Source of the DNA: Kiritimatiellia bacterium
GTDB taxonomy: Bacteria; Verrucomicrobiota; Kiritimatiellia; RFP12; UBA1067
Length of the DNA: 64,000 nucleotides
Assembly (NCBI GenBank): GCA_017395505.1
Contig: JAFPUH010000037.1
Location: forward strand, 59,226 to 123,225
Direction: 5' to 3'
Part shown: one piece after another, positions 11,351 to 58,433 of the stretch
How positions within the stretch are numbered: the first letter of the stretch is position 1
How the letters are laid out: each line of letters begins with the position of its first letter
Made by a program: the position numbers and the translations under genes
Notes under the pieces: model-generated
What the model was told of the DNA's origin: nothing
What the model saw: the letters and a program-made list of their open reading frames with translations, nothing else
The model's database searches: none

Positions 11351-11417
11351 AGGTAGTGTATTATACCTAATTTTGCGGGTCTGCGTCAAATGCTGACGCG
11401 ATATGAAGAAGGCTTCG

Positions 11418-11912
11418 TTACTTGGCCGGAGGCTTCGGCCACTCCACACCCGACATGGTTTCGTCGAGCTTCTTCAGGAACGCCTTGGGACCGCCCTGCG
11501 TATAGCCGCCAATCCGCCTGACGACCTCGCCTTTCGAATCGGTTATGACCATCGACGGAAATCCGCTTATCGAGTATTTCTGGAGCAGTTCCGGATTCTG
11601 CTTCGCAGCGAGGTTCGAGAGCCTCTTCCTGTCCTTGGGATGGTCTATCATGACCAGCACATACTTCTTCGAGGCGCGCTTTATGAACGCACTCTGGGAA
11701 AACACCTCGGCATCCATGCGGACGCAGTAGCCGCACCAGTCCGAGCCGGAAAACGCCATGAACACAAGCTTGCCTTCGCTTTCGGCCTTTTCCCTTGCCT
11801 TGGCCACATCCTCCATCCAGCCCTTCGGTACGCTTCGCGAAACCGACGGCGCGGCATTCGCGACCACGGTGAACATAGCCAATACGACCGCAACTGCATT
11901 CTTTACTTTCAT
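11418..11912 (-). CDS. Secreted thioredoxin-like protein (SGSDWCGYC motif; DUF255/thioredoxin_7-like)
   Basis: 164 aa with signal peptide and a CxxC in a thioredoxin-like context. The motif GSDWC is shared with the N-terminus of the 50269..53418 protein. TGTAAAAT sits 6 nt before the ATG, so the transcript is likely leaderless. Confidence 0.6.
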   Translation of the reverse strand: MKVKNAVAVVLAMFTVVANAAPSVSRSVPKGWMEDVAKAREKAESEGKLVFMAFSGSDWCGYCVRMDAEVFSQSAFIKRASKKYVLVMIDHPKDRKRLSNLAAKQNPELLQKYSISGFPSMVITDSKGEVVRRIGGYTQGGPKAFLKKLDETMSGVEWPKPPAK

Positions 11913-12042
11913 GCGCGTATTTTACAAAATGGCGGCGACTTTGTCAATCGCCTGCTAGAGAGGGATGCCCATGAACCCGGCATTGGAGAAGACCACCGCA
12001 AGCCGAAGGACTTCCCCTGGACGCAACCTGGCTGCGGGAGCA

Positions 12043-14094
12043 TCACTTCTTCACGACCGTGAAGACGTTGCGGTTGCCGACCCTCTCGTATGTGACCGAA
12101 TCGGACATCTTCTTGACCATCATTATGCCAAGACCGCCGATTGGCCTTTCAGCCGCGGAAAGCGTCGTGTCCGGATCGGTGTGCGACAGCGGATCGTACT
12201 CGTCGCCATCGTCTATGAACGACATCTTTACGCATTCGGGATTCTCATTCTCCTCAAGGTCCACCTCGAAGCAGGTCGCTCCGGAATGCTTTACGATGTT
12301 CGAGCATATCTCGTCCAGTATTATGTGGAGCGTCGGCAGAAGGCTCTTGCGCTCGACCGTCTCGTCGAGGAAGTCGGACGCGGCTGCGACACCGGCCTGG
12401 GTCGACGGGAACGACTTTGCGCGGCGCGTGCCGTTGAACCTCAAGAGGAGCTGCGTGCAGTCGTCGGCCTGCTCGACACCGAGGCCATGGGCCCTCACGC
12501 ACGCCAGAACGGCGCCGAGGATGCGCGAACGCGAACCTTCGAACAGCGGAGTGCCGCCGGCGAGCATCGACGAGATGTCCTGCTCTAGGCGTTCTTCGCC
12601 GAACAGCACGTTCTTGGCGTCAGGCTGCTCGGTGATTCCGTCCGTGTAAAGGTATATCGCGTCGCCTGGCTTGAGCTGAAGCGTCTCGCTGCGGTACTTG
12701 ACGCCCGGCATGACGCCGAGCACGAGACCGGGTGTCGAGCGCATGAAGCTCGTGCGGCGGCCATCCTTGTCGGGAGCCTCCGATATGAATATCGGCGGGT
12801 TGTGTCCTGCGTTCACGTAGTTGACGGTGCCGGTCACGAGATCTATCTCGCCAACCCATGCCGTGACGAACATGTTTGCGCCGTTGTCGCGGCTCAGGGC
12901 CTCGTTCGCGGTCGTGACGACCTCGTCGATCGGCCTGCCCGTCTGGGCGATGCCCTTTATGGACGCCTTCGCCCTCATCATGAAGAGCGCGGCCGGAACG
13001 CCCTTTCCGCTCACGTCCGCGATCAGGAACGTCACCTTGGCCGGACCCGAGAAGTAGAAGTCGTAGAAGTCGCCTCCGACATCCTTCGCCGTGTTCATGT
13101 CGGCGAAGATGTCTATCCGGTGCTCTCCGGGGAACGGCGGGAAGGTACGCGGAATGGCGCTCTCCTGGATCTCGGAAGCCATCGCCATCTCCTTCTTGCG
13201 CTGCGCGGAGATTTGCCCTTTGACATAGCCTGCAATGACGATTCCCACCAGGAACGAGGCCAGAATGAGGGCCATTCCGTTCAGGAACGCCGATGTTGCG
13301 ACGAGTACACGCCTTTCAACTATCGCAGTGCGCTTGGGAATGACGGCATATACCGGGAAGCCCTCGATTATGCGCTTCTCGCAATAGCTCTCTTCGCCAG
13401 GATCGACCCACTGGCCGCCCTCGCAACCGGCCTCGGGATGCGATATGATCGTGCCGTTGACCGTCGTTATGAATATGCCGCCGTTGTCCCCGCTCACATG
13501 CCAGCCGTGTGTCAGGCCCGTGACTGCGGTTCTGGACAGGTTGCGCACCGACTGCGGCCGGGCGCCGACCTGCACGAAGCCGCCGTCAGGCAGCCACACG
13601 CCGACATACTTTACCATATCGCCGCGAAGCGTGTTGGGCAGAAGAGGCTGGGTCACCTCGAATTTGTCTGTGAGCAGCGCAGCAAACTCCTTCGCCTGGC
13701 CGTCCGCCTTGGTGAAGTCTAGAGCCCCCACCTCCTCGCGGCGCGCGCTGTGTGTAAGCATTCCGTCGGAGTTGACGATGCATATCTCGTCGACGCGAAG
13801 CTCGTCGGCCACATTCCTGAGCCGGCGGCACGACTCGTCGGGATCGTTCCACCACGGCTCTTCGCGCATCTCGTAGTATTTGTCGCGAAGCAGCATCGCC
13901 TGGCGCAGCATCTTGGCGTCCACACGCTCGCGAATGTCGACCGCGACATCATTGAATACGTTGTCGAAGATGCGCTGCATCTCCCGCTTCGTCATCTTCT
14001 CGTGAAGAATCCACGTAAGCACCATCGACGCGACGAACGCTATGGCGACAGCGCCGACGAGCCTAAATACAAGTCTGCGATTGGATGTCTTCAT
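12043..14094 (-). CDS. Membrane sensor PP2C (SpoIIE/RsbU-type) serine phosphatase fused to a C-terminal RsbW/SpoIIAB-type HATPase kinase domain
   Basis: 683 aa: TM1, a periplasmic domain of about 230 aa, TM2, a PP2C domain (DVSGKG, DGITE motifs), then a HATPase_c N-box and G-boxes (DDGDEYD, GGLGIMMVKKMSD). Confidence 0.85.
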   Translation of the reverse strand: MKTSNRRLVFRLVGAVAIAFVASMVLTWILHEKMTKREMQRIFDNVFNDVAVDIRERVDAKMLRQAMLLRDKYYEMREEPWWNDPDESCRRLRNVADELRVDEICIVNSDGMLTHSARREEVGALDFTKADGQAKEFAALLTDKFEVTQPLLPNTLRGDMVKYVGVWLPDGGFVQVGARPQSVRNLSRTAVTGLTHGWHVSGDNGGIFITTVNGTIISHPEAGCEGGQWVDPGEESYCEKRIIEGFPVYAVIPKRTAIVERRVLVATSAFLNGMALILASFLVGIVIAGYVKGQISAQRKKEMAMASEIQESAIPRTFPPFPGEHRIDIFADMNTAKDVGGDFYDFYFSGPAKVTFLIADVSGKGVPAALFMMRAKASIKGIAQTGRPIDEVVTTANEALSRDNGANMFVTAWVGEIDLVTGTVNYVNAGHNPPIFISEAPDKDGRRTSFMRSTPGLVLGVMPGVKYRSETLQLKPGDAIYLYTDGITEQPDAKNVLFGEERLEQDISSMLAGGTPLFEGSRSRILGAVLACVRAHGLGVEQADDCTQLLLRFNGTRRAKSFPSTQAGVAAASDFLDETVERKSLLPTLHIILDEICSNIVKHSGATCFEVDLEENENPECVKMSFIDDGDEYDPLSHTDPDTTLSAAERPIGGLGIMMVKKMSDSVTYERVGNRNVFTVVKK

Positions 14095-14768
14095 TTCTCG
14101 CCCCTCGCCGCAATCACCTCGTCTAGCGCCGCCTTCAGGCGGACGTTCCCCTTGCCGAGAGCTATGCCGAAGTTCTCGCGCGTCTCCAGCCGTGACGCCG
14201 CCAGCTCGCCGCCGGACAACTCCGCGGTATGCCTGACGGCGCTGCTGTCGAAGAATACCGCATCGACGCGTCTGGCCCTCAAAGCCTTCAATGCCAAAGG
14301 ATACGTATCGTAGCGTATCGGATCTATGTTGTGCGCCGACAGGTAGAAGTCGTAGGTAGACGCATCAATGGTCGCAACGCGCAGGTTCTCGACCAAGATC
14401 ATTGTCGGCATGCGCTCGCTGGCGCGGTAGAGGAACATTCCGCCCTCGTGCGCATACGGCTCCGAGAAATCTACGGCCTGGAGACGCCCCTCGGTGATCG
14501 TTATCGTGGACGCCGCCATGTCGGCCTTGCCAGAACTGACCATCGGCAGAAGGTCGGGGAACTTCGCCCAGCGGACCTCAAGCCCGCGCCCAAGCTTTGC
14601 GGCGGCTTCGCGCGCTATGTCAATCTCTATGCCGACGATCTCGCCGGTCGCTTCGTCGCGGTATGAGAACGGTGGAGTGTCTGTAGTCGTTATGAGCACA
14701 AGCGGCGGCTCGGCCGCCACGAGGGACGTCGCCAGAAGGACGCCCAGAAACGCAAGACTGCTTTTCAC
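14091..14768 (-). CDS. Periplasmic solute-binding protein, family 3 (amino-acid-binding type), orphan (no permease or ATPase nearby)
   Basis: 225 aa, signal peptide, SBP_bac_3-like sequence. ATGA overlap with the downstream phosphatase-kinase gene. Confidence 0.75.
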   Translation of the reverse strand: MKSSLAFLGVLLATSLVAAEPPLVLITTTDTPPFSYRDEATGEIVGIEIDIAREAAAKLGRGLEVRWAKFPDLLPMVSSGKADMAASTITITEGRLQAVDFSEPYAHEGGMFLYRASERMPTMILVENLRVATIDASTYDFYLSAHNIDPIRYDTYPLALKALRARRVDAVFFDSSAVRHTAELSGGELAASRLETRENFGIALGKGNVRLKAALDEVIAARGEK

Positions 14769-14770
14769 GG

Positions 14771-15064
14771 TCAGACGATCGTAAAGATGGAACTCATGCC
14801 CGTGATGTCGAAGACGCTCTTGACCATCTCGTTCGGGCTCACGATGGACATCTTGCCACCAGAGACCATCATCGCCTTCTGCGCACCCATGAGAACGCGT
14901 AGACCTGCGGACGAGATATATTCAAGATCGGCAAAGTCGAACAGTATCTCCGTTACGCCGTCAAGCTTAAGCTCGCCCTCAAGCTCCGGCGAGGTGTTGG
15001 TGTCGAGGCGCCCCTCGACCTTGAGCGTAAGGCATCCGTTTTCCAGTTTCTTCTCGATTTTCAT
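14771..15064 (-). CDS. STAS-domain anti-sigma-factor antagonist (SpoIIAA/RsbV-like)
   Basis: 97 aa; DLEYISSAGLRVL carries the conserved phosphorylatable Ser in a STAS fold. First gene of the operon; SD AAGGAA 8 nt before the ATG. Confidence 0.8.
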   Translation of the reverse strand: MKIEKKLENGCLTLKVEGRLDTNTSPELEGELKLDGVTEILFDFADLEYISSAGLRVLMGAQKAMMVSGGKMSIVSPNEMVKSVFDITGMSSIFTIV

Positions 15065-15102
15065 TTATGGTTTCCTTGTAGGCTAAATAGCAGTATGCTT
15101 TA

Positions 15103-15114
15103 TATATTATACCA
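15103..15114 (-). promoter_or_regulatory. Extended -10 promoter TGGTATAAT for the STAS / SBP / phosphatase-kinase operon
   Basis: rc of 15106-15114 is TGGTATAAT; about 34-nt leader with an SD. Confidence 0.5.
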
Positions 15115-15205
15115 AATTTGCCTCGTCTCGTGTGCTGGGAATTTTTGCAAAGACCACAAGGTAGGTGGACTCATGTACAGCCAAGAGCAAAATCCAGTTT
15201 CGCAT

Positions 15206-15380
15206 GGTTTGCGAAGTTGTTTTGGCAAAAATGGAGGTGGTAAGTATAGAAATATAGTATATATTAGATATATATTACTAATTATATTTTACACACAAAA
15301 ACAATTTCGCAACGCGCAGGGGGGTACCCTTATAACATGGCACACCCCATGCGAAGTTGGATTTTTGCGAAGTTGGATTT
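15206..15380. promoter_or_regulatory. Three copies of TGCGAAGTTG(G/T)(A/T)TTT (two in tandem at 15348-15380) plus a 60-bp AT-rich tract, upstream of the partner-switching operon promoter
   Basis: Direct repeats at about 15208-15223, 15348-15362 and 15367-15381. The AT-rich block 15241-15300 contrasts with the 65% GC background. Confidence 0.35.
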
Positions 15381-15386
15381 GCCCTG

Positions 15387-16010
15387 CTATGCGTTTACCC
15401 GCATATCCGCCCAGAGCTGTTCCTGTGCCTCGATGACGAGAAGCATCATTTCGCGGGTCGCGTCATCGATTTCGGCCGCTTCGTACCGTGCATTTGCGAT
15501 GTTGCCGAGCATGATCAGCGCCTCCGTCCACATCTCGTACGAGCAGGAGTCCTTCCTTTTGGCGAGTTTCGCACCTTCGAGAACGTATGCATCGAGCGCC
15601 GTTCGCACATCGCGCTGGAATACGCTCTCGTCGAAAAGCGTGTCGGTGTCGTTGGGGTCGTTCTCGTCGTCGGGGTCCTTGAGCCTGTATTCGAACGTCG
15701 CATCGAAGGCCATGACGAACATCACGACCTCCATGAGCTGGCGCTTGCTGTCGAATTCAAGCGGAAGGCGGCATACGCCGTTCGCGAGACTGTCGGAGTC
15801 CTCATTGATAGCCTTTAGAATGTGGCTCTTCACATTCTCGCGCCTTTCGGCGTCCAGTGAGGGATTCGCCGGCTGCCTGTCGTAGCCGAAGTAGAACATT
15901 TTCAGTATGGGACGCCAGAAGTCGTCCGTCCTGCGCTCCTTTGCGGCCTCCCAGTCAAGGACTTCGCCGTCGGTTCTCTGCGTCTTGCCAATGAAATCGA
16001 GCGTCTTCAT
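15387..16010 (-). CDS. Hypothetical acidic protein (207 aa), downstream partner of the P-loop protein
   Basis: ORF with a 4-nt overlap (16007-16010) to the upstream gene. No recognisable family. Confidence 0.5.
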   Translation of the reverse strand: MKTLDFIGKTQRTDGEVLDWEAAKERRTDDFWRPILKMFYFGYDRQPANPSLDAERRENVKSHILKAINEDSDSLANGVCRLPLEFDSKRQLMEVVMFVMAFDATFEYRLKDPDDENDPNDTDTLFDESVFQRDVRTALDAYVLEGAKLAKRKDSCSYEMWTEALIMLGNIANARYEAAEIDDATREMMLLVIEAQEQLWADMRVNA

Positions 16011-17779
16011 TTCGCGTTCCCCTTCTTTATGACGTATTTGGTGCCCTTTCCGTTCGAGCCGATTCTATGGAGTATCGTCACCTCGTCGCGATCTTCGAGG
16101 GTTTCCTCTATCTTGTCCATCTCGAACTTGGTGACATGCAGCCCCTTTGTGATTTCCGAGCGCATCACTCCCGCGTCGCCTGCCTTGCGGATCATGCGGA
16201 TCGCGGCGAGCACCTTCTCGTCCGTCTCGTTTGTCGCCGCGTAGTCTCGCGCCATCTGCAGCATGCGGCCCTGGATCGCCTTGACGAGCGCCCACGCCCA
16301 GCGGACGCCCTCGACGGAGATAACCGGCCTTTCGATGTCGGCGCTGATCGCGTGCAGGAGCGCGAGCTTGAGGACCAGTTCGACCGAACGTCCCCACACC
16401 GACTCCTCCATCGCGTCGCCCGCCGCCTTTTCGTAGAGCGCGTCCGACTCGTCGGAGACCTTGCGAGCCTCCTCCTCGGCTTCCGGCGACATCTGCACGA
16501 GATACGGCTGTATAGGCCCCCTGTCGCCCGCAGGCGGGGGCATCGCCGCAAGCCGCGACACCTTGTCGGTCACGAAATACGGCACGGGGTTCGCCTCCAG
16601 CCCCGACTTGAAGTTGTCCTTGCTGCGGGGCCCCGCCTCGAATACGAGGCAGCGCCCGAGAAGTCCGCCCGTAAGCGCGCGCTGGCTGAGGGCGCTGTAG
16701 AAGTTGCTCGGCGTCGCTGTCGCGAACATCGAGAAAGAGGGCTTTACGATGTCCTCTCGGCCCTGCGGCTTGTTGGGGCCGGCGGCCTTGGCGCGCGTCG
16801 TGTGGATCGAGCCGGACGACGTGAAGATGCTCAGCATCAAGCGCCAGAGGGATTCCGTCGCCGAGCTGCTGTTGCGGTCGCTCTTGAGCTCGCGAAGCAC
16901 CGAGTCGTACTCGTCGAACTGGCAAAGGAGCGTCGGCGAGTTGAGGAGCGCATCCTCGAGGCCCTGTCCAGAGGCGACGTTCTGTATGACGGACGACGAC
17001 ATGCGGACGTTCGCGGCGAGGTTCTTTATCACCTTTCGGGGGTGGTCCTTGCCGGTCGCGGAGCCGGCGAGCGCGATTATGTAGAGGTTTGGGTATGCGT
17101 CGCGGGGGCCGACGAACTTGCGTCCCGCCAGGTGGGCGAGGAACACGAGCGAGCCCGCGAAGGAAAGCACGCGATTCGGACGGTGGGCCGAGAGCATCAT
17201 GTATTCGGTGAGCTCGTTCACGAAGCCGGGCACATTGAGGAGCGACTCGTCGATCGCGCCCTGGTTCTGGGGCGAGGACGCCTTCTCGGGGGCCGGCGCG
17301 GCCTCGTCGCCGCAGGGCGGCAGGGTGATGGTCGAGATCATGTCTCGAGCGGCCGTGTAGCGGCTCGTCACCTCCTCGTTGAGCGCGGAAAGCGCAAACT
17401 GGCGGGCCTCGAAGGACGGGAAGCTCCGCATGTTGATGTCTTCGGTGCCGCGCCTGAGGTCGCGCTCGCACACGACGGACACGAACTCGCGGAAGTCGGT
17501 GCGAATCGTGGCGGTACTCGCCGCGAGGCCATTGAAGAAGTCCAGAAACCCGTCGTCGGCCAGCTCCGGCATGCTCTTTACGGCCGCAACGCCGCGTACT
17601 ATGGCGTCTTGGCTCGTTTCGTTCATAAGCGCACGGAAAGCGGCGCTTCGGCTGTCGCTCGAGAAATAGCTGTTCTCAATTCCGATCCGCTCGACAAGGA
17701 GTTTCGCCTGCCGCGCGAACTGCACAAGATGAGACAGCACCGCATACTCAAGCCGCTCTTCTTTGGTGATGTCTTTCAT
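16007..17779 (-). CDS. P-loop NTPase-like protein resembling the DUF3987 / VirE (phage-plasmid primase C-terminal-like) family, with a C-terminal winged-helix-like region
   Basis: 590 aa from the internal ATG at 17779. The longer track ORF to 17959 would read through the REP-like repeat. Deviant Walker A LYIIALAGSATGKD and Walker-B-like LLCQFDEYD. TGGTATAAT sits 8 nt upstream of the ATG, suggesting a leaderless transcript. Confidence 0.55.
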   Translation of the reverse strand: MKDITKEERLEYAVLSHLVQFARQAKLLVERIGIENSYFSSDSRSAAFRALMNETSQDAIVRGVAAVKSMPELADDGFLDFFNGLAASTATIRTDFREFVSVVCERDLRRGTEDINMRSFPSFEARQFALSALNEEVTSRYTAARDMISTITLPPCGDEAAPAPEKASSPQNQGAIDESLLNVPGFVNELTEYMMLSAHRPNRVLSFAGSLVFLAHLAGRKFVGPRDAYPNLYIIALAGSATGKDHPRKVIKNLAANVRMSSSVIQNVASGQGLEDALLNSPTLLCQFDEYDSVLRELKSDRNSSSATESLWRLMLSIFTSSGSIHTTRAKAAGPNKPQGREDIVKPSFSMFATATPSNFYSALSQRALTGGLLGRCLVFEAGPRSKDNFKSGLEANPVPYFVTDKVSRLAAMPPPAGDRGPIQPYLVQMSPEAEEEARKVSDESDALYEKAAGDAMEESVWGRSVELVLKLALLHAISADIERPVISVEGVRWAWALVKAIQGRMLQMARDYAATNETDEKVLAAIRMIRKAGDAGVMRSEITKGLHVTKFEMDKIEETLEDRDEVTILHRIGSNGKGTKYVIKKGNAK

Positions 17780-17820
17780 GGCTACTATTATACCAAAAAT
17801 GGCGAGACGGTGCGTCGCAC

Positions 17821-18030
17821 AGGTCCCGGCGGGCAAGGCGTCAAAGTCCCAGGACCCCAGACTATTTTGCCCTGCCACTTTTCGTATTGGAGTCCCAGGA
17901 CCCCAGACGTCAAACCCCCAGGACTTTGACCCCTTGGGTCCTAGGACTTCACACCTCAAAGTCCTAGGACTTCATACCCCAAAGTCCTAGGACTTTGCTC
18001 GCCTCTCCGCGTGACCCCTTCAAGCCGCCT
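17821..18030. repeat. REP-like intergenic element, copy A (about 210 bp) with three GTCCTAGGAC palindromes; homologous to 58599..58760
   Basis: Alignable to copy B from AGGTCC(C/A)GGCGGGCAAGGCGTCAAAGTCCC through GACTTTGCTC.CCT.CCGCGTG. Several nested inverted repeats. Confidence 0.8.
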
Positions 18031-18043
18031 CGAAGAACCACTT

Positions 18044-18071
18044 TCCGCACCATATTTGCAAATATGGTGCG
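18044..18071. repeat. Perfect 28-bp palindrome CCGCACCATATTTGCAAATATGGTGCGG
   Basis: Seen directly in sequence. It sits 26 nt past the stop of the 18097..20262 gene and is not followed by a T-tract. Confidence 0.8.
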
Positions 18072-18096
18072 GAATTCTAACGCCCGTAATATTACG

Positions 18097-20262
18097 CTAT
18101 GGCATTTCGACCGTCACCTTGAAGAACCGATGAAGCGAATTGGTCGGATACGCCCATTCCTCAGTAGACGATAGCGTCTCCTTGCCATATATCTTGTAAA
18201 GCCGTTCAATGCTATTCGTGTTCAAGTTCGGCTCCCATGTCACAACTGGCACGCCATCTTGCATGTCTATCTTCGCCGTAAACACGCTCGTTTCATTCGT
18301 CGGGTTTGTTCCGGCCACAAACTCTTCCCAAAGTCTCGTCGCCTTCCCGCCCTGCGTCTTGCCGCTCAAGGCAATCGCCGTTGTCTCGAAGTCAGTATCC
18401 TTGCCATCAAAACCGTATTTCGTCAACCACGAATACGGCACGGGTTCTGGTGTGGTCATTGTGAAGCCACTACCGTCGGCAGGCGCCCACTGCACCTGAT
18501 CAACCCAAATGCAGTCTGGCGCATACGAAGTCGCGCCATCCTTGCGGTATTCCCATTTGAGCGTATGCTTGCCGCCTCCCACAATTTCATGCGAGACATA
18601 ATGCCATTCGCCATCATGGCCGGCAATCCTCGCCACAACCACATCATCTACCAAGAAAGCACCATAATCATAGTAACCGTCGTCCCCTTCTTCCTCATCG
18701 GCTTCTTCGCACGCCGCTCTCCACCAGAACGACACCTTACCGTCCTTCTTAATCGAAGATTGCAGCCATGTAGTCTCGTTATTGCCAATCGTACCACTCT
18801 GCACGGACGACACGCCGTCATGCGAAACGTCCGTCACAACGGTCCAGGGATGCGAGTCATCCGTCTCCATCGTGTAACCGTAGAAATTCGCCGCCTCGCT
18901 CAAAGACTCACTTCGCGTGAAGGTCGCCGTAGCCTCTTCCGAATCCTTCCAATCATCCTTGACGGCAATCGCCCGCACGCTGCAAGATTGATAGATGCCG
19001 AAAGGATGCTTGTACTCGCGCCCATTCACCGCTGGGTCGCCCCCGTCAACCGTGTAGAGTATCGTCGCTCCTTCAGTCTCGCACGAAATCGAAACTGCCT
19101 GTGAAACATTGTCAAAGGTTATCCCGCTTGGTTCGATAACTGGTCGCTCAACAGTATACCACTCGCGCGTAAACGTCGCCGTCGCAGTTTCGCTATCAAA
19201 CCAATCCTCCTTAAATGCTTTGGCCTTAACCGTTGTTGTGTCGTCAATTGCAAACGGTCCTGTGTAGAGCGCACTCTTCTCCGTCGGTTCACTCCCATCA
19301 AGCGTATAATGAATCTCGACACTATCGGTTTCACAAGAAAGCGTCACTATGTTGCCGGCCCAATTGAACACATTCTCTTCTGCGGATATGTTCGGCTCGA
19401 CTGCTTGACCAAACGCATACTCATTCGAGTAAACGACTTGATATGGATATTCGGCAACATACGCCAATGCCTTGACTTGTACCCGATGGGTTATCGAAAA
19501 CGGGCCTTCATACAGGAAACATTTTGCGGTTTGATTTGTAGTCGGCTCGCTCCCGTCAATCGTATAATAAATTTTTGCGGTATCATTTGCTGATGTCAAA
19601 ACAACTTTTCTGTCTTCAGCAAGCACGCCGTCAGCTGGAGCAAAGTTCACTTTTGCGGCTCCATAATCCACCGCGCCCATGAGCCATGTTTCACCTTCTA
19701 CCCAGTCTTCGCATCCCTCAACCGCCATACATCCATTACCTTGAGAGTAATTGAAGCGTCCCGTGCAGCTACATTCGCGGCCGCCGGCACTCCAACTAGA
19801 TGAAATAGTGGTTGCTGGTTTTAAGCCTTCAAACATGATATTTACTGTATTTTTGATGGGATAAACCCACCAGCCTCGCCATGTATCATAATAATTATGA
19901 TCCCTGAGACTTGCCCTCGAAAAAAATGAGCTTCCATTTGTTGCGATTCTTAAAACGGTTGAAGGGACTATTACGGCCGTCACATCCGAATCATCAGGTA
20001 TTTTGATAGCACCTACCCCAATACCAACTACTGGCATACCATCAATCATAGATGGCAATCTTAATACCTTTGGCAGCGCTCCACTATGGGCGGGCAATGG
20101 ACTATTGGACTCATTAGGAACCATTGTTCGTGTGGAGGGATTCTCCAAAACAACGCCATCTTTATCTTCATAATAATACCAAGTGATTCCTTCTATGGTT
20201 TGTGTCAGAGCAAAGACACTGCTGGTGATCCCCGCAAATATCAAGACTAACATGCTTTTCAT
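18097..20262 (-). CDS. Secreted or cell-surface protein with a BspA-like leucine-rich region and four chitobiase/beta-hexosaminidase C-terminal-type (Fn3-like) repeats
   Basis: 721 aa with signal peptide. Repeated IYYT(I/L)DGSEPT / ILYTVDGGDP modules. Markedly lower GC than the flanks. Confidence 0.75.
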   Translation of the reverse strand: MKSMLVLIFAGITSSVFALTQTIEGITWYYYEDKDGVVLENPSTRTMVPNESNSPLPAHSGALPKVLRLPSMIDGMPVVGIGVGAIKIPDDSDVTAVIVPSTVLRIATNGSSFFSRASLRDHNYYDTWRGWWVYPIKNTVNIMFEGLKPATTISSSWSAGGRECSCTGRFNYSQGNGCMAVEGCEDWVEGETWLMGAVDYGAAKVNFAPADGVLAEDRKVVLTSANDTAKIYYTIDGSEPTTNQTAKCFLYEGPFSITHRVQVKALAYVAEYPYQVVYSNEYAFGQAVEPNISAEENVFNWAGNIVTLSCETDSVEIHYTLDGSEPTEKSALYTGPFAIDDTTTVKAKAFKEDWFDSETATATFTREWYTVERPVIEPSGITFDNVSQAVSISCETEGATILYTVDGGDPAVNGREYKHPFGIYQSCSVRAIAVKDDWKDSEEATATFTRSESLSEAANFYGYTMETDDSHPWTVVTDVSHDGVSSVQSGTIGNNETTWLQSSIKKDGKVSFWWRAACEEADEEEGDDGYYDYGAFLVDDVVVARIAGHDGEWHYVSHEIVGGGKHTLKWEYRKDGATSYAPDCIWVDQVQWAPADGSGFTMTTPEPVPYSWLTKYGFDGKDTDFETTAIALSGKTQGGKATRLWEEFVAGTNPTNETSVFTAKIDMQDGVPVVTWEPNLNTNSIERLYKIYGKETLSSTEEWAYPTNSLHRFFKVTVEMP

Positions 20263-20627: not shown

Positions 20628-20852
20628 CTATCAGTATCTCCTTTCGCCTGCCGCTACCTAGTTTGTGAGATGAGCACCGGTGGCAAAAGATAAGCGGCGC
20701 ACTCTCAAGATTCACATCTTCTGGAGGCACCGGAAAGAGCCCGAAGTAAAACATGATTAGAAAGTACGCCGCGTGGATACCACGCAGCGCAACTTCGTAT
20801 TTCGCCTTACTCCTTGAAAATTTCCGGTTTTCCAGAAAGCTACTATACGCTG

Positions 20853-21036
20853 TTGCGTACGTTGCACGGGTTAGGTTGCCCACCCCGCGCTTTTCTCCAC
20901 TCCACTTCACCCGAAGTGTGGGAGCTACGGCCGGCTTTTCTGCCCGACCGGTATGTCAAAGAACCTTGCCCTTCTCGCGAAGGAACGGCGAATATGATAC
21001 CATATCGCCGCGCTCATTTCAAGCGCGGCGAGAGGG
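20853..21036 (-). repeat. About 185-bp repeat R190, copy 1: GC-rich structured segment ending in a hairpin (TCGCCGCGC-TCATTTCAA-GCGCGGCGA) immediately followed by TGGTATCAT
   Basis: More than 95% identical to 21616..21797. The 3' 50 nt also occur at 23121..23170 and, diverged, at 58836..58878. Confidence 0.85.
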
Positions 21037-21063
21037 AAATTAGTTTTCGAAATTCTGTGCCTA

Positions 21064-21312: not shown

Positions 21313-21324
21313 AGCTTAGCCCTA

Positions 21325-21576: not shown

Positions 21577-21615
21577 TTTAAATGCCCTCCTTTCTTTCCG
21601 ATGGTCTATTCTAAA

Positions 21616-21797
21616 TTGCGTACGCTGCACGGGTTAGGTTGCCCACCCCGCGCTTTTCTCCACTCCACTTCACCCGAAGTGTGGGAGCTACGGCCGGCTT
21701 TTCTGCCCGACCGGTATGTCAAAGAACCTTGCCCTTCTCGCGAAGAACAGCGAATATAATACCATATCGCCGCGCTCATTTCAAGCGCGGCGAGAGG
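21616..21797 (-). repeat. About 185-bp repeat R190, copy 2 (hairpin plus TGGTATTAT at its upstream end); precedes the DUF4160/DUF2442 cassette
   Basis: Near-identical to 20853..21036; ends 40 nt before the DUF4160 ATG. Confidence 0.85.
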
Positions 21798-23120: not shown

Positions 23121-23170
23121 AGGAACACCGATATGATACCATATCGCCACGCGCGAATCAAGCGCTGAAC
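23121..23170 (-). repeat. R190 3'-tail fragment (hairpin plus TGGTATCAT) at the right boundary of the low-GC island
   Basis: CGAAGGAACACCGATATGATACCATATCGCCACGCGCGAATCAAGCGCTG aligns to the last 50 nt of R190. GC composition returns to the flank level immediately to the right. Confidence 0.7.
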
Positions 23171-23172
23171 GA

Positions 23173-24318
23173 TCAGGAGAAAGTCTTTGCGTAATCGGAG
23201 TAGATAGCGGCCGCGTCAAGGTCCGACCGTGCCATTCTGAAGGCGTTTGCGCCGCATTTCGCAGTGTCGAGCGAACTGAGCGTTCTCACGAGACTTGCGG
23301 CATCGGATGCGCGGTATAGGGCGCCGGCCTCATGGCGGGCGAGCAGCTTGGCGCTTTCGCCGCCGAGGGAGCTGACGACCGCAAGCGATGCTTTGGCATA
23401 GTCGCAGAGCTTGTAAGGTACGCCGACGCAGCTTGAATCGTCCATCGGTATCATGCCGACGTTGCAGCCGGCGAACATGCGCGAAAGCTCCTCTTCGCCA
23501 AGATAGCCCCTGAAGCGAACGCGCGACGAAACGCCAAGCCCTTCCGCAAGCTGGCGCAGCGCCCCTTCTCCTTCTCCCTTTCCGGCGATGTCTAGCGTTG
23601 CGTCAGGCAGTTCTGCGAGAGCGCTCACGACTGTTGCGAGGTCGTATGTCCGGCCGAGATTTCCGGCGTATGCGAGGCGCAGCGCGCCATCATCCTTACG
23701 GACGACAGCAGAAGCGCCGGACATGTCGATGCCGTGGTAGAACCTGCGAACTTCGCCCTTGAAACCGTAGCCGCGAACGAGATCGATGTAGCGGTCTGCT
23801 ACGACGGTTATCGCGTCCGCACCGAGGTAGTTCGCTCGGGCGAGGCGGCGAAGCGGCCATAGCGCCGCCTTGGGAGCGACGCGCTCGAACGTCTCTGGCC
23901 ACGCATCCATGACATCAATGACGAGCTTGGCGCCGAATTTCGCTGCGAGACGGCGAGCGACGAGTCCTGTCGAGAGCGGAGGAGTCGAGACGACGATCAG
24001 ATCAGGGGCGCCATTCTTTTTCGCCGCGGCTTGGGCGAGGCGCGACCATTCGCGCGAATAACGCCAGTGGCTGATCATGCGGCCAAGCGAGACGTTGGCG
24101 GAATAAGGCGGCTCGTGCACCAGGCGAAGCGCGAAACTAGGCGGCTCTCCTGCTATGGCGCGGCGTGTCTTTGTCGTATGGTTGAAGTCGGCCGTCCAGA
24201 GGGTCACTTCATGCCCCGCGCGCGCAAAAGCCTCCGCCATGAGCCAATACCGCTGGGGACGAAAACCCTCCAGCGGAAGGTTGTCGAAGGGATTCTCTAT
24301 CCAGACGCGCAAATTCAC
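23173..24318 (-). CDS. Glycosyltransferase family 4 (RfaG-like)
   Basis: GTG start overlapping the der stop (GTGA). N-terminus ...GFRPQRYWLMAEAFARAGHEVTLWT and C-terminal E-x7-E region typical of GT4. The track extension to 24816 overlaps der and is rejected. Confidence 0.75.
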   Translation of the reverse strand: MNLRVWIENPFDNLPLEGFRPQRYWLMAEAFARAGHEVTLWTADFNHTTKTRRAIAGEPPSFALRLVHEPPYSANVSLGRMISHWRYSREWSRLAQAAAKKNGAPDLIVVSTPPLSTGLVARRLAAKFGAKLVIDVMDAWPETFERVAPKAALWPLRRLARANYLGADAITVVADRYIDLVRGYGFKGEVRRFYHGIDMSGASAVVRKDDGALRLAYAGNLGRTYDLATVVSALAELPDATLDIAGKGEGEGALRQLAEGLGVSSRVRFRGYLGEEELSRMFAGCNVGMIPMDDSSCVGVPYKLCDYAKASLAVVSSLGGESAKLLARHEAGALYRASDAASLVRTLSSLDTAKCGANAFRMARSDLDAAAIYSDYAKTFS

Positions 24319-27714: not shown

Positions 27715-27723
27715 AAATTATAC
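27715..27723 (-). promoter_or_regulatory. Extended -10 (TGGTATAAT) promoter for pheS
   Basis: rc of ATTATACCA; 23-nt leader with an AGAGG SD. Confidence 0.5.
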
Positions 27724-27736
27724 CATATTTTCGCGC

Positions 27737-32708: not shown

Positions 32709-32743
32709 TTCTTTTGCCCTCTTATGGGAAATTTTGGTGGTAT

Positions 32744-32752
32744 ATTATACCA
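32744..32752 (-). promoter_or_regulatory. Extended -10 (TGGTATAAT) promoter for secDF
   Basis: rc of ATTATACCA, 36 nt upstream of the secDF ATG. Confidence 0.5.
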
Positions 32753-37504: not shown

Positions 37505-37533
37505 CGGTAGTGATTATACCATAAATGGACAAA

Positions 37534-43884: not shown

Positions 43885-44337
43885 TTATACAATATCCTGC
43901 ATGAACGCGCCCGTTTCATGCGCCTCAGATCCGTCCGATCCGGACGAGAGGTCGGCCTTATATTCAGAGACGAATTCACGCCAAGTCTTGACCACATCGG
44001 CGAAACGGTCGACCATATCTAGAGATTTGTCGGGGTCGATCCTGTCGAGCCATGTATACTTCTCTAGCCAGATCGAACCCGTCTCGGGATTAATCGTCAG
44101 CGTAGAGCCGGCGGTTCCGCCGTAAAGCCAATTGGCCTGGAGGGCAACACGATAGAGAGCCTCAAGACCATCTTCTGGCGGAGGCACACCAATCTCGGCC
44201 ATGAAGAGCACAAGATCGCCTGCCTCATGAAGCATCACCGAAACGCCATCGATATCGAGCCCGCAAACTCCGCCTTCGGCCTCGATCTCAAGGTTCAACT
44301 TTTGCCCAAGTGACTGTATGAATTTATCGAATTCCAT
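43885..44337 (-). CDS. CesT/YbjN-family protein (T3SS-chaperone-like fold; putative sensory transduction regulator)
   Basis: 150 aa, acidic. Pattern similar to the CesT/Tir-chaperone family. TGGTATAAT sits 7 nt before the ATG, suggesting a leaderless transcript. Confidence 0.45.
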   Translation of the reverse strand: MEFDKFIQSLGQKLNLEIEAEGGVCGLDIDGVSVMLHEAGDLVLFMAEIGVPPPEDGLEALYRVALQANWLYGGTAGSTLTINPETGSIWLEKYTWLDRIDPDKSLDMVDRFADVVKTWREFVSEYKADLSSGSDGSEAHETGAFMQDIV

Positions 44338-44422
44338 GGTGGTAATTATACCAAATCTCAGTTCTCAGACGCAAGGGGGATGCTAAAAACCCAACATGTA
44401 ATGCAAAAAATAATCGAAGGAT

Positions 44423-44499
44423 TGGTGGGCGGTGAGAGACTCGGACTCCCGACCTTGACCGTGTAAAGGTCCTGCTCTAACCAACTGAGCTAACCGCCC
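44423..44499 (-). tRNA. tRNA-Val (anticodon TAC), CCA encoded
   Basis: rc is GGGCGGTTAGCTCAGTTGGTTAGAGCAGGACCTTTACACGGTCAAGGTCGGGAGTCCGAGTCTCTCACCGCCCACCA, which folds as a cloverleaf (7-bp acceptor, GCTC/GAGC D-stem, anticodon loop TTTACAC, T-arm GGGAG/CTCTC). A TGATATAAT promoter lies 14 nt upstream. Confidence 0.85.
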
Positions 44500-44519
44500 T
44501 AAAAACGGTGCGTATTATA

Positions 44520-45215
44520 TCATATTTTCGGAACCGCCGACAATAGCCTTTTGGTATAGTCGCTCGTCGGGTGCTCGAAGACTTCAGCCGCTTCGCCGGA
44601 GTCGACGAAGAGGCCCCTTTCCATAACACAGATCCTGTCGCAGACGTTCTTCACAACAGCCAGGTCGTGTGCAATCAGAAGAATCGAAATGCCGAGGTCT
44701 CGGCGAAGTTCACGCAAGAGGTTCAGCACTCTCGCCTGAACAGATACGTCAAGCGCCGAGACAGGTTCATCGGCGATCAGCACCTCGGGCTCGCACGCAA
44801 GTGCCCGGGCCACAGATACGCGCTGGCACTGTCCGCCGGACATCTCGCGCGGATACTGGTCGAGAACCGCCTTGCTTAAGCCAACAAGCTCCAGAAGTTG
44901 CTCGGGAGTGCGGTGGCGTATGCCCTTCACCTTGAGCGTCTCTGCGAGAGTCTGACGCACGGTCATGCGCGGATTCAGAGAGCCGACGGCATCCTGAAAC
45001 ACCATCTGAACGGACTTTGCATTACAGACTATGCGCCCCGACGACGCCTTCTCGAGTCCGATAAGTGTCTTGGCGATGGTGGACTTTCCGCTTCCGGATT
45101 CGCCGACGATGCCGAGAATCTCGCCCTGCCTCAAGGTGAACGACACGCCCTTCACGGCCTCGAAATCGCCGTATCTGACGTGCAGGTCTTCTACTTCGTA
45201 GAGGTTGCCGCTCAC
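44520..45215 (-). CDS. ABC transporter ATP-binding protein (oligopeptide Dpp/Opp-type ATPase), orphan, coupled to argH
   Basis: Walker A GESGSGKST, signature LSGGQ, Walker B ILLIADEP. 4-nt overlap with argH. No permease or SBP partner nearby. Confidence 0.85.
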   Translation of the reverse strand: MSGNLYEVEDLHVRYGDFEAVKGVSFTLRQGEILGIVGESGSGKSTIAKTLIGLEKASSGRIVCNAKSVQMVFQDAVGSLNPRMTVRQTLAETLKVKGIRHRTPEQLLELVGLSKAVLDQYPREMSGGQCQRVSVARALACEPEVLIADEPVSALDVSVQARVLNLLRELRRDLGISILLIAHDLAVVKNVCDRICVMERGLFVDSGEAAEVFEHPTSDYTKRLLSAVPKI

Positions 45216-53418: not shown

Positions 53419-53460
53419 GTGAGTATTATACCAAATCCCCATACAGACAGGCAACCGCAC

Positions 53461-53497
53461 AAAAAAAGCAAGCCCCCGCACAACTTGGTGCGAGGGC
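53461..53497 (-). terminator. Rho-independent terminator after hndD
   Basis: Minus strand shows GCCCTCGCACCAAGTTGTGCGGGGGC followed by TTGCTTTTTTT. Confidence 0.6.
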
Positions 53498-53542
53498 CAG
53501 CTTTTGAGTCGAGCCGGCGGCTGTTCCGCCGTCGGCAACACC

Positions 53543-55345: not shown

Positions 55346-55366
55346 GTTGAAAGTTCCTTTCCTCTC

Positions 55367-57154: not shown

Positions 57155-57169
57155 TGTGTCTCCTTACTT

Positions 57170-57565
57170 TCAGGCGTTCTTGACGATATCGACCGAAGGC
57201 CTGTCGAGGATCTTGCCCTCAATGAGGTTGTGGCCGACGATGTGCTTCTCGACGATCTCCTTCGCGGTCGCGGCATCGACGTGACCGTAGATGACCGCGG
57301 GCATTCCGGGGACGACGACCTCGACGGTCGGCTCGGAGTGGCAGAGGCCCATGCAGCCCGTCTGGCGGATGAGGACGTTCGTGAGGCCCTTCTCTGTGAG
57401 CGTATCTACGAGGGCAGTGAATGTATCCTTCGCGCCGGCGGCTATGCCGCAGGTACCCATGCCGACGATGACCTGCACGTCCTTGTTGGAGTTGTCGCGC
57501 ATTTCCATCGCCTTCTGCTTTTCGCCGCGCATCTTGCGCAGGTCGTCCAGTGTAAGCTTTGCCAT
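57170..57565 (-). CDS. hndB: Thioredoxin-like [2Fe-2S] ferredoxin subunit (HndB-like)
   Basis: 131 aa with a CxxxxC...C...C 2Fe-2S thioredoxin-like ferredoxin pattern (GTCGIAAG...CMGLCH). Confidence 0.7.
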   Translation of the reverse strand: MAKLTLDDLRKMRGEKQKAMEMRDNSNKDVQVIVGMGTCGIAAGAKDTFTALVDTLTEKGLTNVLIRQTGCMGLCHSEPTVEVVVPGMPAVIYGHVDAATAKEIVEKHIVGHNLIEGKILDRPSVDIVKNA

Positions 57566-57587
57566 TTTCCTGTCTCCTTAGATTAAA

Positions 57588-58067
57588 TTAGCCGCGCTCG
57601 CGGTAGATCTTGATGAGGCGCTCGACATCCTTCGTCTCGAGCTTGCCGTGCACTTCGCCGTTGATGACGACGACAGGGGCGAGGCCGCAGCAGCCGAGGC
57701 AGCGGACGGCTTCAACCGTAAAGAGCCCGTCGGGTGTCGTCGCATTGAGGCCGACGCCGAGCTGACGCTCGAACTCCTTGACGAGATCGTCGCCGCCTCT
57801 GAGGTAGCACGCCGTACCGAGGCACACCTGGATGATGTACTTGCCTGCCTTCTGCAGCTTGAAGAAGTTGTAGAAAGTCACCACGCCGTAGATCTTCGCG
57901 AGCGGCACCTCGAGCATCTCCGAGATTTCGATCGCAATGTTGCGCGGGATGTAGCCGTAGGTCTGCTGAACCTGGTGGAGCACCATGATCAGGTTGCCGG
58001 GCTTGGCCTTCCAATCAGTGACGAACGCCTTGAGTTCCGGCGTCATCTGTTCGAGTTGTTCGCTCAC
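57588..58067 (-). CDS. hndA: NuoE-like [2Fe-2S] subunit of the hydrogenase (HndA/HydC)
   Basis: GTG start; NuoE signature CLGTCYLRGG...CLGCC. First gene of the operon, with GGAG SD and a TGGTATAAT promoter at 58108-58116. Confidence 0.85.
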   Translation of the reverse strand: MSEQLEQMTPELKAFVTDWKAKPGNLIMVLHQVQQTYGYIPRNIAIEISEMLEVPLAKIYGVVTFYNFFKLQKAGKYIIQVCLGTACYLRGGDDLVKEFERQLGVGLNATTPDGLFTVEAVRCLGCCGLAPVVVINGEVHGKLETKDVERLIKIYRERG

Positions 58068-58107
58068 GAGTGTTTCTCCATAATCTAGTTGTTAGAGTTT
58101 GATGGGA

Positions 58108-58116
58108 TTATACCAA
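58108..58116 (-). promoter_or_regulatory. Extended -10 (TGGTATAAT) promoter for the hndABCD operon
   Basis: rc of ATTATACCA; about 40-nt leader containing GGAGAAACACTC-GTG. Confidence 0.5.
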
Positions 58117-58154
58117 ATACTCCGAACGCCTGCAACCAGTTAGATAGGTCTAAT

Positions 58155-58307
58155 TTATATCTTCAGGCAGATGACGAGCAGCTCGACGGCAATGACGACG
58201 AGCGAGGCGGCGATGACTATTCCGACGGCCGTAATCATCCGCCCCCACTCACGGAAAGCCGTCGCGGACTCCCTCGCCGATTCCTTGATGTTGTCGAACC
58301 ATTTCAT
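58155..58307 (-). CDS. Unannotated 50-aa single-TM peptide (MKWFDNIKESARESATAFREWGRMITAVGIVIAASLVVIAVELLVICLKI), leaderless
   Basis: Not in the ORF track (under 60 aa). TGATATACT sits 7 nt before the ATG. Polar N-terminal half, then one hydrophobic helix. The opposite-strand 60-aa ORF (58171..58353 +) has no such signals. Confidence 0.35.
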   Translation of the reverse strand: MKWFDNIKESARESATAFREWGRMITAVGIVIAASLVVIAVELLVICLKI

Positions 58308-58433
58308 GCAGTCAGTATATCATATCCAGCCCCTTCCCGCAACCAGACATTAAAGCCGCCGTCTTTATCGCCCAACTCTTAAGGCCTAGGCGGAATTCGG
58401 GTTGGTATTGTATTTAGATTCTCTTTTCTATTC

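Follow-up and report, generated by a model that had tools for sequence, protein, structure and literature searches.

Extended -10 promoters and predicted leaderless transcripts in a sub-clade of gut Kiritimatiellia

Promoter sites and genes of the window

The window, by which we mean the whole 64,000-nucleotide stretch of DNA analysed here, comes from a lineage that its pheS relatives place among the gut and rumen Kiritimatiellia (PVC group). It carries, among others, pheS, secDF, an RND efflux operon, an hnd-type hydrogenase operon and a tRNA-Val gene, in front of which TATAAT-like hexamers recur. The sites and the genes they precede are listed below, with distances running from the hexamer to the start codon unless stated otherwise and SD standing for Shine-Dalgarno.

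11360..11389, minus strand: promoter of the RND efflux operon, TTGACG, 18 nt, TATAAT, with AGG in place of TG; its -10 is AGGTATAAT (11360-11368); 56 nt to ATG 11303; SD GGGAGG
11418..11912, minus strand: thioredoxin-like gene, 164 aa, predicted leaderless
11919..11947, minus strand: thioredoxin-like gene promoter with a perfect TTGACA, 17 nt, then TG-TAAAAT; its -10 is TGTAAAAT (11919-11926); 6 nt (ACGCGC) to ATG 11912
15106..15114, minus strand: TGGTATAAT, STAS / SBP / SpoIIE-kinase operon; 41 nt to ATG 15064; SD-like run AAGGAA
17787..17795, minus strand: TGGTATAAT, DUF3987 gene; 7 nt (AGTAGCC) to ATG 17779; predicted leaderless
20994..21022, minus strand: second promoter type in a low-GC island, TTGAAA, 17 nt, TG-n-TATCAT, within a repeated module; further copies at 21756-21784 and 23133-23161 and a diverged copy near 58850
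27717..27725, minus strand: TGGTATAAT, pheS; 43-nt intergenic spacer; 23 nt to ATG 27693; SD AGAGG
32744..32752, minus strand: TGGTATAAT, secDF; 35 nt to ATG 32708; SD AGAGGG
37513..37521, minus strand: TGGTATAAT, GFO_IDH_MocA (GFO) gene; 29-nt intergenic spacer; 8 nt (CACTACCG) to ATG 37504; predicted leaderless
44345..44353, minus strand: TGGTATAAT, CesT-like gene; 7 nt (TACCACC) to ATG 44337; predicted leaderless
44514..44522, minus strand: TGATATAAT, tRNA-Val (44423-44499); 14 nt before the mature 5' end
53425..53433, minus strand: TGGTATAAT, gene of a 1049-aa secreted protein (MRTMLVLLAAF...); 6 nt (ACTCAC) to ATG 53418; predicted leaderless
58107..58115, minus strand: TGGTATAAT, hnd-type hydrogenase operon; 39 nt to GTG 58067; SD GGAG
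58314..58322, minus strand: TGATATACT, gene of a 50-aa membrane peptide (58155-58307); 6 nt (GACTGC) to ATG 58307; predicted leaderless
58918..58926, plus strand: TAGTATAAT, aminotransferase gene; 24 nt to ATG 58951

Exact TGNTATAAT occurs nine times in the window where shuffled sequences predict 0.25, TGGTATAAT eight times against 0.05 expected, and matches with one mismatch 23 times against 2.3. All nine exact TGNTATAAT sites are non-coding, in an annotated span of which non-coding DNA makes up 7.7%, and all nine lie on the minus strand, as does the gene that follows each of them; among the roughly 13 large intergenic gaps, 12 hold such a promoter site. The TG stands one base upstream of the TATAAT-like hexamer, with variants that include TGATATACT and TGTAAAAT, and is missing from two window promoters, AGGTATAAT and TAGTATAAT. 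Downstream of the hexamer two arrangements are found: a gap of 6-8 nt without an SD in six genes, all of which begin with ATG, and a gap of 23-56 nt in six others, five of which have an SD-like purine run. Genes internal to operons carry a GGAG-type SD and not the promoter word, as seen in the window gene table.

An earlier note on this DNA had described a recurrent intergenic extended -10 motif, found also upstream of tRNA-Val, with the ATG of six genes 6-8 nt past the hexamer and no SD, and with SD leaders retained by hndA, pheS, STAS and the histidine kinase; the counts, placement and gene table agree on all of these points. The six ATGs (11912, 17779, 37504, 44337, 53418 and 58307) follow the hexamer at 6, 7, 8, 7, 6 and 6 nt, which leaves no room for an SD, and the leaders of the other four genes hold SD-like purine runs. 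The sites that it listed are real, with three coordinates to be moved (17788 to 17787, 27715 to 27717 and 58108 to 58107). At its site 11361 the TATAAT is present (11360-11368) and the TG is not, a TTGACG 18 nt upstream being found instead, while the sites that it gave at 58315 and 11913 are TGATATACT at 58314-58322 and TGTAAAAT at 11919-11926, respectively.

Several smaller features of these sites may be recorded here. Strong terminators lie just upstream of two window promoter sites, a hairpin at 18074-18043 before the DUF3987 gene and another at 53498-53471 before the gene of the 1049-aa protein. The secDF promoter forms part of a palindrome, TGGTATAATATACCA, and one exact TGNTATAAT site shares bases with the end of the ABC gene upstream of tRNA-Val, whose stop codon is the TGA of TGATATAAT. 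No homologs of the 50-aa peptide were detected in relatives. A one-mismatch match at 20173 (TGGTATTAT) is not a promoter, as it encodes W-Y-Y within a gene that probably begins at ATG 20262; the matches at 12122, 19153, 19560, 21545 and 43859 are coding DNA or coincidental, and TGGCATAAT at 58541 on the plus strand is ruled out as a sigma-54 site by its spacing.

The motif and its -35 region in related species

First, to what extent does the motif extend beyond the window? In a comparison set of pheS loci from 80 related species (1.19 Mb), 170 motif sites were found, of which 155 fall in the 16% of the DNA that is non-coding, where a first-order Markov model of non-coding DNA predicts 3.2, an enrichment of ~48-fold; the motif is thus commoner in intergenic than in coding DNA, as the earlier note required of it. 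At the pheS promoter the motif is conserved in most of the 80 species, whereas the flanking DNA has diverged. That such sites arose by chance in AT-rich stretches between genes, descend from a dispersed repeat or serve a global regulator as its operator is an idea to which we give almost no credence: non-coding DNA is indeed lower in GC than the whole sequence (51% versus ~60%), but the expectation of 3.2 was already set at non-coding composition, decoy words of the same composition occur in the relatives 7, 11 and 28 times (6-24 times more rarely) and never 6-12 nt from an ATG, the conserved core spans only ~15 nt between flanks that do not align, and each site is oriented to its gene.

Second, the sites carry little of a classical -35 element. 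No position of the -35 region holds more than 0.22 bit, the match to TTGACA covers three or fewer of the six positions in 81% of sites (mean 2.76, versus 2.37 in random non-coding DNA), and a scan for classical two-hexamer promoters did not rise above shuffles and missed most of the sites. At two window sites whose extended -10 is weak, by contrast, the -35 is strong, with a near-perfect TTGACA or TTGACG at 17-18 nt. The -35 element is weak or dispensable, yet not absent, which qualifies the independence from -35 proposed earlier. No sigma gene was found in the window or the loci by tBLASTn with an approximate sequence of the C-terminal part of E. coli sigma-70.

Third, the motif behaves as a signal for transcription. 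It stands before 14 of the 16 tRNA units in the relatives, 10-22 nt from the mature 5' end, and since it precedes tRNA units the step on which it acts is transcription, not translation. Considering that the word occupies the usual position of a ribosome-binding site in the 6-8 nt genes, one might take it instead for a ribosome-binding site or translation enhancer of an AT-rich, non-SD kind that acts on leadered mRNAs (GeneMarkS-2 group B type). This is very improbable in view of the tRNA units, including the tRNA-Val of the window, and of the identical 15-mer found 20-56 nt upstream of genes that possess an SD of their own; operon-internal genes, moreover, have a GGAG-type SD in place of the word, the word agrees with the sigma-70 extended -10 consensus at every base, and the two weak extended -10 sites are those with the near-perfect -35.

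Motif density drops as phylogenetic distance grows, which indicates a trait of one sub-clade among the gut Kiritimatiellia rather than of the whole class; more distant Kiritimatiellia have TTGATT-17-TATATT promoters at pheS. This narrows the lineage-level trait proposed earlier. A tBLASTn search for the six window proteins predicted to be leaderless found no orthologs among the 80 pheS loci because synteny is not kept there. Four orthologs of the GFO protein (84-93% identity), obtained from a separate metagenome scan with that protein, retain the motif, the 8-nt spacing and the ATG, whereas the spacer and upstream sequence differ.

Spacing, start codons and protein N-termini

In the relatives, the distance from the hexamer to the first ATG of a long open reading frame, as assigned by a simple home-made gene caller, is bimodal, with 47 sites at 6-12 nt (mode 7), 66 at 20-45 nt, where ~60 of the leadered cases are one gene, pheS, and just five at 13-19 nt. 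The two classes also differ around the start codon. At 6-8 nt, a pyrimidine occupies position -1 in 27 of 29 genes, an SD-like word is seen in none of the 29 and ATG is the start in 24; at 18 nt or more, an SD-like word occurs in 57 of 76 and the pyrimidine at -1 in 53%. Spacings of 9-12 nt would give a leader of 2-5 nt unless the start site shifts. In one relative (L052) the spacing at pheS is 10 nt, and the GFO gene is predicted to be leaderless in the close clade only.

Protein N-termini agree with the promoter position, the predicted leaderless starts yielding proteins that are full-length for their families. All ten predicted leaderless proteins of the relatives (6-12 nt class) that were compared with NCBIfam profiles, namely TrpS, GltX, PurA, Obg, Fmt, DnaG, RnfA, CysS, HisH and PurB, align from residues 1-9 at profile positions 1-6, and in the CesT-like protein of the window, position 1 of the Pfam CesT profile aligns at residue 5. 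Full signal peptides need the promoter-adjacent ATG: in the thioredoxin-like gene, ATG 11912 yields a full signal peptide (MKVKNAVAVVLAMFTVVANA) that the database start, 11876, truncates. Out of ~54 database gene starts in the window, three look wrong; two of these belong to leaderless-class genes, one of which has its signal peptide cut by the call; the database start for the 1049-aa secreted protein is 53409. The promoter-adjacent codon would then be the true N-terminus, in line with the earlier proposal that these promoters fix start codons, and promoter position can be used to assign start codons in these uncultured gut and rumen genomes.

It could be argued that the promoters are real while the 6-12 nt genes are not truly leaderless, being expressed mainly by read-through from upstream promoters or from a downstream start codon, with the adjacent -10 as a minor or secondary internal promoter. 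Three window sites with short spacings or short leaders do lie in 29-43 nt spacers of co-oriented arrays with no terminator between, and in two of the six genes predicted to be leaderless the database caller placed the start further downstream. Since some promoters of the leaderless class stand in such spacers inside gene arrays, read-through mRNAs would also carry those genes, without an SD, and internal translation on them is expected to be poor. We regard this alternative as unlikely considering, in addition, the signal peptide cut by the downstream database start, the ten family profiles that align from the first residues, the pyrimidine at -1 and the sharp 7-nt mode, which fit a start on the A of the ATG, and the exact 8-nt spacing that GFO orthologs keep in unrelated upstream contexts.

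An extended -10 reading and its parallels

The arrangement as a whole quite probably reflects sigma-70 transcription from extended -10 promoters in which leaderless mRNAs are frequent, a pattern that GeneMarkS-2 calls group C; a promoter box lies ~10 nt before first operon genes and SD sequences are found elsewhere, as judged from the gene table and the bimodal spacing rather than from a GeneMarkS-2 run. The recurring 15-mer, a-A-W-T-W-TGgTATAAT-A, would serve this lineage of gut Kiritimatiellia as its sigma-70-type housekeeping promoter, an extended -10 (TGn + TATAAT) with a TRTG-like T two bases ahead of the TG and little or no -35 contact, and a near-perfect TGGTATAAT promoter likely starts most transcription units of the genome, with the ATG only 6-8 nt away in about half of them. 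RNA polymerase would start 6-8 nt past the hexamer. Where the ATG is placed exactly at that position, as in the six window genes, the 5' end of the transcript would be the A of the ATG, and translation of this leaderless mRNA would begin at the 5'-terminal AUG with no need of a Shine-Dalgarno sequence; a start codon 20-56 nt past the hexamer would instead give a short leader, usually with an SD-like sequence, on which operon-internal genes would likewise depend. An Rfam search of the whole window returned tRNA-Val as its sole match, so the longer leaders are not explained by a riboswitch or sRNA. The promoter and leaderless reading makes predictions at the level of sequence; all those tested held, and the reading is supported to that extent, the leaderless status being predicted from the DNA.

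Promoters in which TG lies one base upstream of TATAAT and the -35 is largely dispensable are known as the extended -10 (TGn) type of E. coli, where they are a minority class, and as the TRTGn "-16 region" of Firmicutes. The present sites resemble both in having a T two bases before the TG in 88% of cases (T-W-T-G) and a largely dispensable -35. They differ from Firmicutes in having W (A or T) in place of R, and from E. coli in that the extended -10 is the dominant form at tRNAs and housekeeping genes, the genome having ~60% GC. It is a further, tentative and on balance doubtful idea that housekeeping promoter recognition in the sub-clade has shifted almost wholly to the 15-nt extended -10 (AAWTW-TGG-TATAAT-A), leaving the -35 nearly information-free. 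If true, this would mean that the primary sigma factor (region 4.2 or 3.0) or another polymerase contact has changed specifically in this lineage, and the shift may have enabled repeated switching between leadered and leaderless states (e.g., L052 pheS and the GFO gene). The fall in motif density among more distant relatives offers a natural system for studying the evolution of promoter architecture and leaderless initiation, and the 15-nt consensus could serve as a compact, portable promoter for engineering in the clade.

A leaderless style of gene expression is already known from Deinococcus and Actinobacteria. GeneMarkS-2 group C genomes provide a leaderless-rich precedent (PMC6028130), and in Deinococcus a -10 motif lies 6-7 bp before open reading frames (PMC12340547). 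Shared with group C, Deinococcus-Thermus and Actinobacteria are a Pribnow-type box 6-8 nt before the start in the first gene of many operons, SD sequences for leadered and operon-internal genes with ~25-50% of operons leaderless, and a motif that reveals mis-annotated start codons (PMC6028130, PMC12340547, PMC3160421). The box itself differs, being here the full consensus TGGTATAAT with an upstream AAWTW tract, whereas that of D. radiodurans and Actinobacteria is a loose TANNNT (mostly TACACT in D. radiodurans). Unlike Deinococcus-Thermus and Actinobacteria, the present lineage is one of gut Kiritimatiellia (PVC). PVC lineages are not mentioned in the main text of PMC6028130 and PMC3160421, and the predicted frequent leaderless expression would extend the style to another PVC lineage. 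A further parallel is Akkermansia muciniphila (Verrucomicrobia), a gut member of the same superphylum, in which start sites mapped by Cappable-seq show pyrimidine-purine at -1/+1, as do the predicted leaderless starts here; its promoter logos, unlike the present sites, are reported to have both a -35 element and a TATAAT box (PMC4782308). Its leaderless start sites, which fall on annotated start codons, amount to 10% (PMC4782308), below the roughly 35-50% of promoter-proximal genes that we predict to be leaderless in the present lineage.

Placement of the motif in the window

The exact extended −10 motif, TGNTATAAT, in which TGn precedes the −10 hexamer, was observed nine times in the 64-kb window against 0.25 expected from dinucleotide-preserving shuffles; TGGTATAAT alone accounts for 8 occurrences where 0.05 would be expected, and with one mismatch permitted the count rises to 23 against 2.3. 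By the gene calls of a public contig carrying the same sequence (ena:ERZ27256806:k141_189394, 143 kb), all nine exact sites lie in non-coding DNA, which amounts to 7.7% of the annotated span, so that the recurring intergenic motif described in the earlier note is borne out. One of the nine overlaps a stop codon, and all nine are on the minus strand, as are nearly all genes between 2 kb and 58 kb. Such a promoter site is present in 12 of the ~13 large intergenic gaps, and the sites at 53425 and 17787 each have a strong terminator hairpin directly upstream. The earlier hexamer-to-ATG spacings hold as quoted, although coordinates were off by 1–2 nt in three places; the site placed at 11361 is actually AGGTATAAT, without TG, and that placed at 58315 is TGATATACT. 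A further site, TGTAAAAT, occupies 11919–11926.

Distance from the hexamer to the start codon in the window
ATG 11912, thioredoxin-like gene, predicted leaderless: 6 nt
ATG 17779, DUF3987 gene, predicted leaderless: 7 nt
ATG 37504, GFO_IDH_MocA gene, predicted leaderless: 8 nt
ATG 44337, gene for a protein with a CesT profile, predicted leaderless: 7 nt
ATG 53418, gene for a 1049-aa protein, predicted leaderless: 6 nt
ATG 58307, predicted leaderless: 6 nt
pheS: 23 nt, Shine-Dalgarno (SD)-like purine run
aminotransferase: 24 nt, no SD-like purine run
secDF: 35 nt, SD-like purine run
hndA: 39 nt, SD-like purine run
STAS: 41 nt, SD-like purine run
RND membrane-fusion protein: 56 nt, SD-like purine run

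The SD leaders that had been ascribed to hndA, pheS and STAS are thus found, each with its purine run. Before tRNA-Val, the motif ends 14 nt upstream of the mature 5′ end, and the TGA stop of the ABC-transporter ATPase gene (44520–44522) doubles as the "TGA" of the TGATATAAT extended −10 driving this tRNA. Divergent from that promoter, TGGTATAGT at 44552–44560 on the plus strand, with a typical upstream T-tract, lies antisense within the 3′ end of the ABC gene; it may act as an antisense promoter or be a one-mismatch match by chance. The secDF promoter sits within a perfect palindrome, TGGTATAATATACCA (32738–32752), and can therefore be read on the opposite strand as a one-mismatch extended −10, facing the 3′ end of the NAGLU gene.

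Promoter character and spread among related species

Scanning species-representative genomes with the window's PheS gave 80 related loci (75–94% identity, 1.19 Mb). Most are labeled as Kiritimatiellia or Kiritimatiellae MAGs, a class of the PVC group in the NCBI taxonomy, and the remainder are mostly Verrucomicrobia, Lentisphaerae or unlabeled; record titles name rumen, horse faeces, goat, sheep, yak and human gut. In most of the 80 species, pheS is preceded by T-W-TGGTATAAT, GGGTATAAT, TGATATAAT or TGCTATAAT at 20–50 nt from the ATG, in flanking sequence without conservation. Among 170 occurrences of TGNTATAAT in these loci, 155 fall in the non-coding 16% of the DNA left by a simple gene caller, where a first-order Markov model of non-coding DNA predicts 3.2. 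Decoy words of equal base composition occur 7, 11 and 28 times. In 14 of the 16 tRNA transcription units counted in the first 60 loci, TGNTATAAT, TGNTATACT or TGTTACAAT ends 10–22 nt before the mature 5′ end, which rules out a purely translational role. The logo of 176 distinct sites has the consensus a-A-W-T-W-TGgTATAAT-A, with T two bases 5′ of TG in 88%. Comparison of the relatives supports the motif as a promoter of the extended −10 type.

These promoters had also been proposed to be largely independent of a −35 element, and the relatives agree: in the logo no position of the −35 region exceeds 0.22 bit, and the match to TTGACA is 3/6 or fewer in 81% of sites. The best match at 16–18 nt averages 2.76/6, slightly above the 2.37 of random non-coding positions (p = 3e-5). 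For sigma-70 promoters a trade-off between the extended −10 and the −35 is expected, and stronger −35 elements are indeed found where the extended −10 is weak: in the window, AGGTATAAT has TTGACG at 18 nt and TGTAAAAT has TTGACA at 17 nt, and in the relatives TATAAT without TG more often has a −35 match of 4/6 or better (34% vs 19%).

The density of TGNTATAAT declines with PheS identity, from 1.8 per 10 kb at 86% or more, through 1.0 at 81–85%, to 0.4 at 80% or less, where none is at leaderless spacing; the pheS promoters of the most distant loci read TTGATT-17-TATATT or TAAACT, without TG. The trait is thus lineage-level, as had been suggested, but the lineage is limited to a sub-clade of gut Kiritimatiellia.

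The predicted leaderless class

Measured to the first ATG opening a long, high-GC3 ORF, motif distances in the relatives are bimodal, with 47 sites at 6–12 nt (mode 7), 5 at 13–19 nt and 66 at 20–45 nt; the looser pattern TGNTANNNT adds 36 sites at 6–12 nt. The 6–8 nt class differs from genes at 18 nt or more in having a pyrimidine at −1 (27/29 vs 40/76) and in SD-like 4-mers (0/29 vs 57/76), with ATG as start codon in 24/29 vs 69/76. In the window, C directly precedes the ATG in five of the six candidates. With six window genes and no SD-like word in the 29 relatives' genes, the claim of ATGs 6–8 nt after the hexamer without an SD stands, and the pattern supports the prediction that leaderless genes are frequent.

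Well-known housekeeping enzymes are among the proteins that start at motif-adjacent ATGs in the relatives. For TrpS, GltX, PurA, Obg, Fmt, DnaG, RnfA, CysS, HisH and PurB, the alignments to the NCBIfam profiles begin at protein residues 1–9 and profile positions 1–6, so a start farther downstream is impossible for these ten proteins. For the window protein starting at 44337, the match to the CesT profile begins at residue 5. The public call for the thioredoxin-like gene, 11876 rather than 11912, cuts the signal peptide MKVKNAVAVVLAMFTVVANA, and that for the 1049-aa protein, 53409 rather than 53418, loses an Arg-containing signal-peptide start.

A metagenome scan gave four contigs with orthologs of the GFO_IDH_MocA protein at 84–93% identity, two of them with their upstream sequence in common. 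All four keep TATGGTATAAT, exactly 8 nt and ATG, even with spacers unlike the window's, unrelated upstream sequence in two, and differing residues 2–7, which argues for selection on the putative leaderless arrangement within this close clade. Since most orthologs at 66–74% identity are operon-internal with SD-like words upstream, the arrangement appears to have arisen there. In another ortholog (73% identical; locus L095, about 1420–1500), the ATG comes ~8–10 nt after a tRNA gene ends, with no visible promoter motif before it; tRNA 3′ processing alone might yield a nearly leaderless mRNA. At one PheS locus (L052, about 9981–10000), the pheS promoter TGATATAAT is just 10 nt from the ATG, without an SD, whereas in other motif-bearing species the motif is farther away, usually with an SD-like word; a single orthologous gene thus seems to have changed from the leadered to the leaderless form.

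Proposed reader, known parallels and neighboring elements

The genes behind the motif include aminoacyl-tRNA synthetases, secDF, primase and tRNAs; as it serves housekeeping genes and tRNAs, its reader is most likely a housekeeping sigma-70-type holoenzyme. What the sequences themselves show is the anatomy of the motif and its statistics; as for start sites, sigma factor and mode of initiation, we infer that this holoenzyme would read the −10 hexamer and TG, with little contribution from −35 contact, and begin transcription at a purine 6–8 nt past the hexamer. Where that purine is the A of ATG, the mRNA would have no leader and would be translated from its own 5′ end, as is established in other bacteria, and SD pairing would be used by leadered and operon-internal genes.

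The pattern exactly matches that defining the GeneMarkS-2 "group C" genomes, mainly Actinobacteria and Deinococcus-Thermus, in which 25–50% of operons are leaderless (PMC6028130). About 1/3 of ORFs in D. radiodurans have a TANNNT box 6–7 bp upstream, which likewise corrects start-codon annotations (PMC12340547); leaderless genes were predicted by Zheng et al. to be widespread among bacteria (PMC3160421), and in Akkermansia muciniphila, a gut member of the PVC group, 10% of the start sites mapped by Cappable-seq were leaderless (PMC4782308). A full-text literature search found no published discussion of the trait in Kiritimatiellia. The present case differs from the known leaderless-rich systems in its lineage, in a consensus that is nearly perfect and preceded by an AAWTW tract, and in a −35 region very low in information. 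The observation in the earlier note is confirmed and its interpretation is supported at the level of sequence; the pattern can help to annotate these genomes and is of modest interest for how promoter architecture evolves.

Several other features were seen in the window. The CHB_HEX_C/Fn3_assoc protein (18097–20262) is publicly called at ATG 19728; since the ORF from ATG 20262 opens with a signal peptide, MKSMLVLIFAGITSSVFA, behind an AAGGAG SD, the called start is probably ~178 codons too short. Adjoining the DUF3987 gene (16007–17779), five ~15-nt copies of TGCGAAGTTGGATTT, direct and inverted, surround a ~60-nt AT-rich palindromic core (15240–15300) within 15141–15382; the block looks like iterons with an unwinding element, and an integrated mobile element may have its replication origin here. 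A 183-nt duplicate, 99% identical (20853–21035 and 21616–21797; diverged copies at 23122–23174 and about 58850–58880), holds the palindrome CGCCGCGCT-TGAAATG-AGCGCGGCG overlapping a TTGAAA-17-TGGTATCAT/TATTAT promoter and is a predicted second, −35-bearing promoter module, located in a low-GC island (20–24 kb, 51% GC) with DUF4160, DUF3791/DUF3990 and NTP_transf_2 genes. The 640-nt intergenic region 58308–58950, which separates divergent operons and has no Rfam match, contains three tandem copies of a 22-nt unit (58443–58508) and a 14-nt inverted repeat (58618–58631/58695–58708). Finally, the hndA leader includes a five-codon upstream ORF (ATGGAGAAACACTCGTGA, 58064–58081), whose TGA stop overlaps the hndA GTG start and may reflect translational coupling or coincidence.
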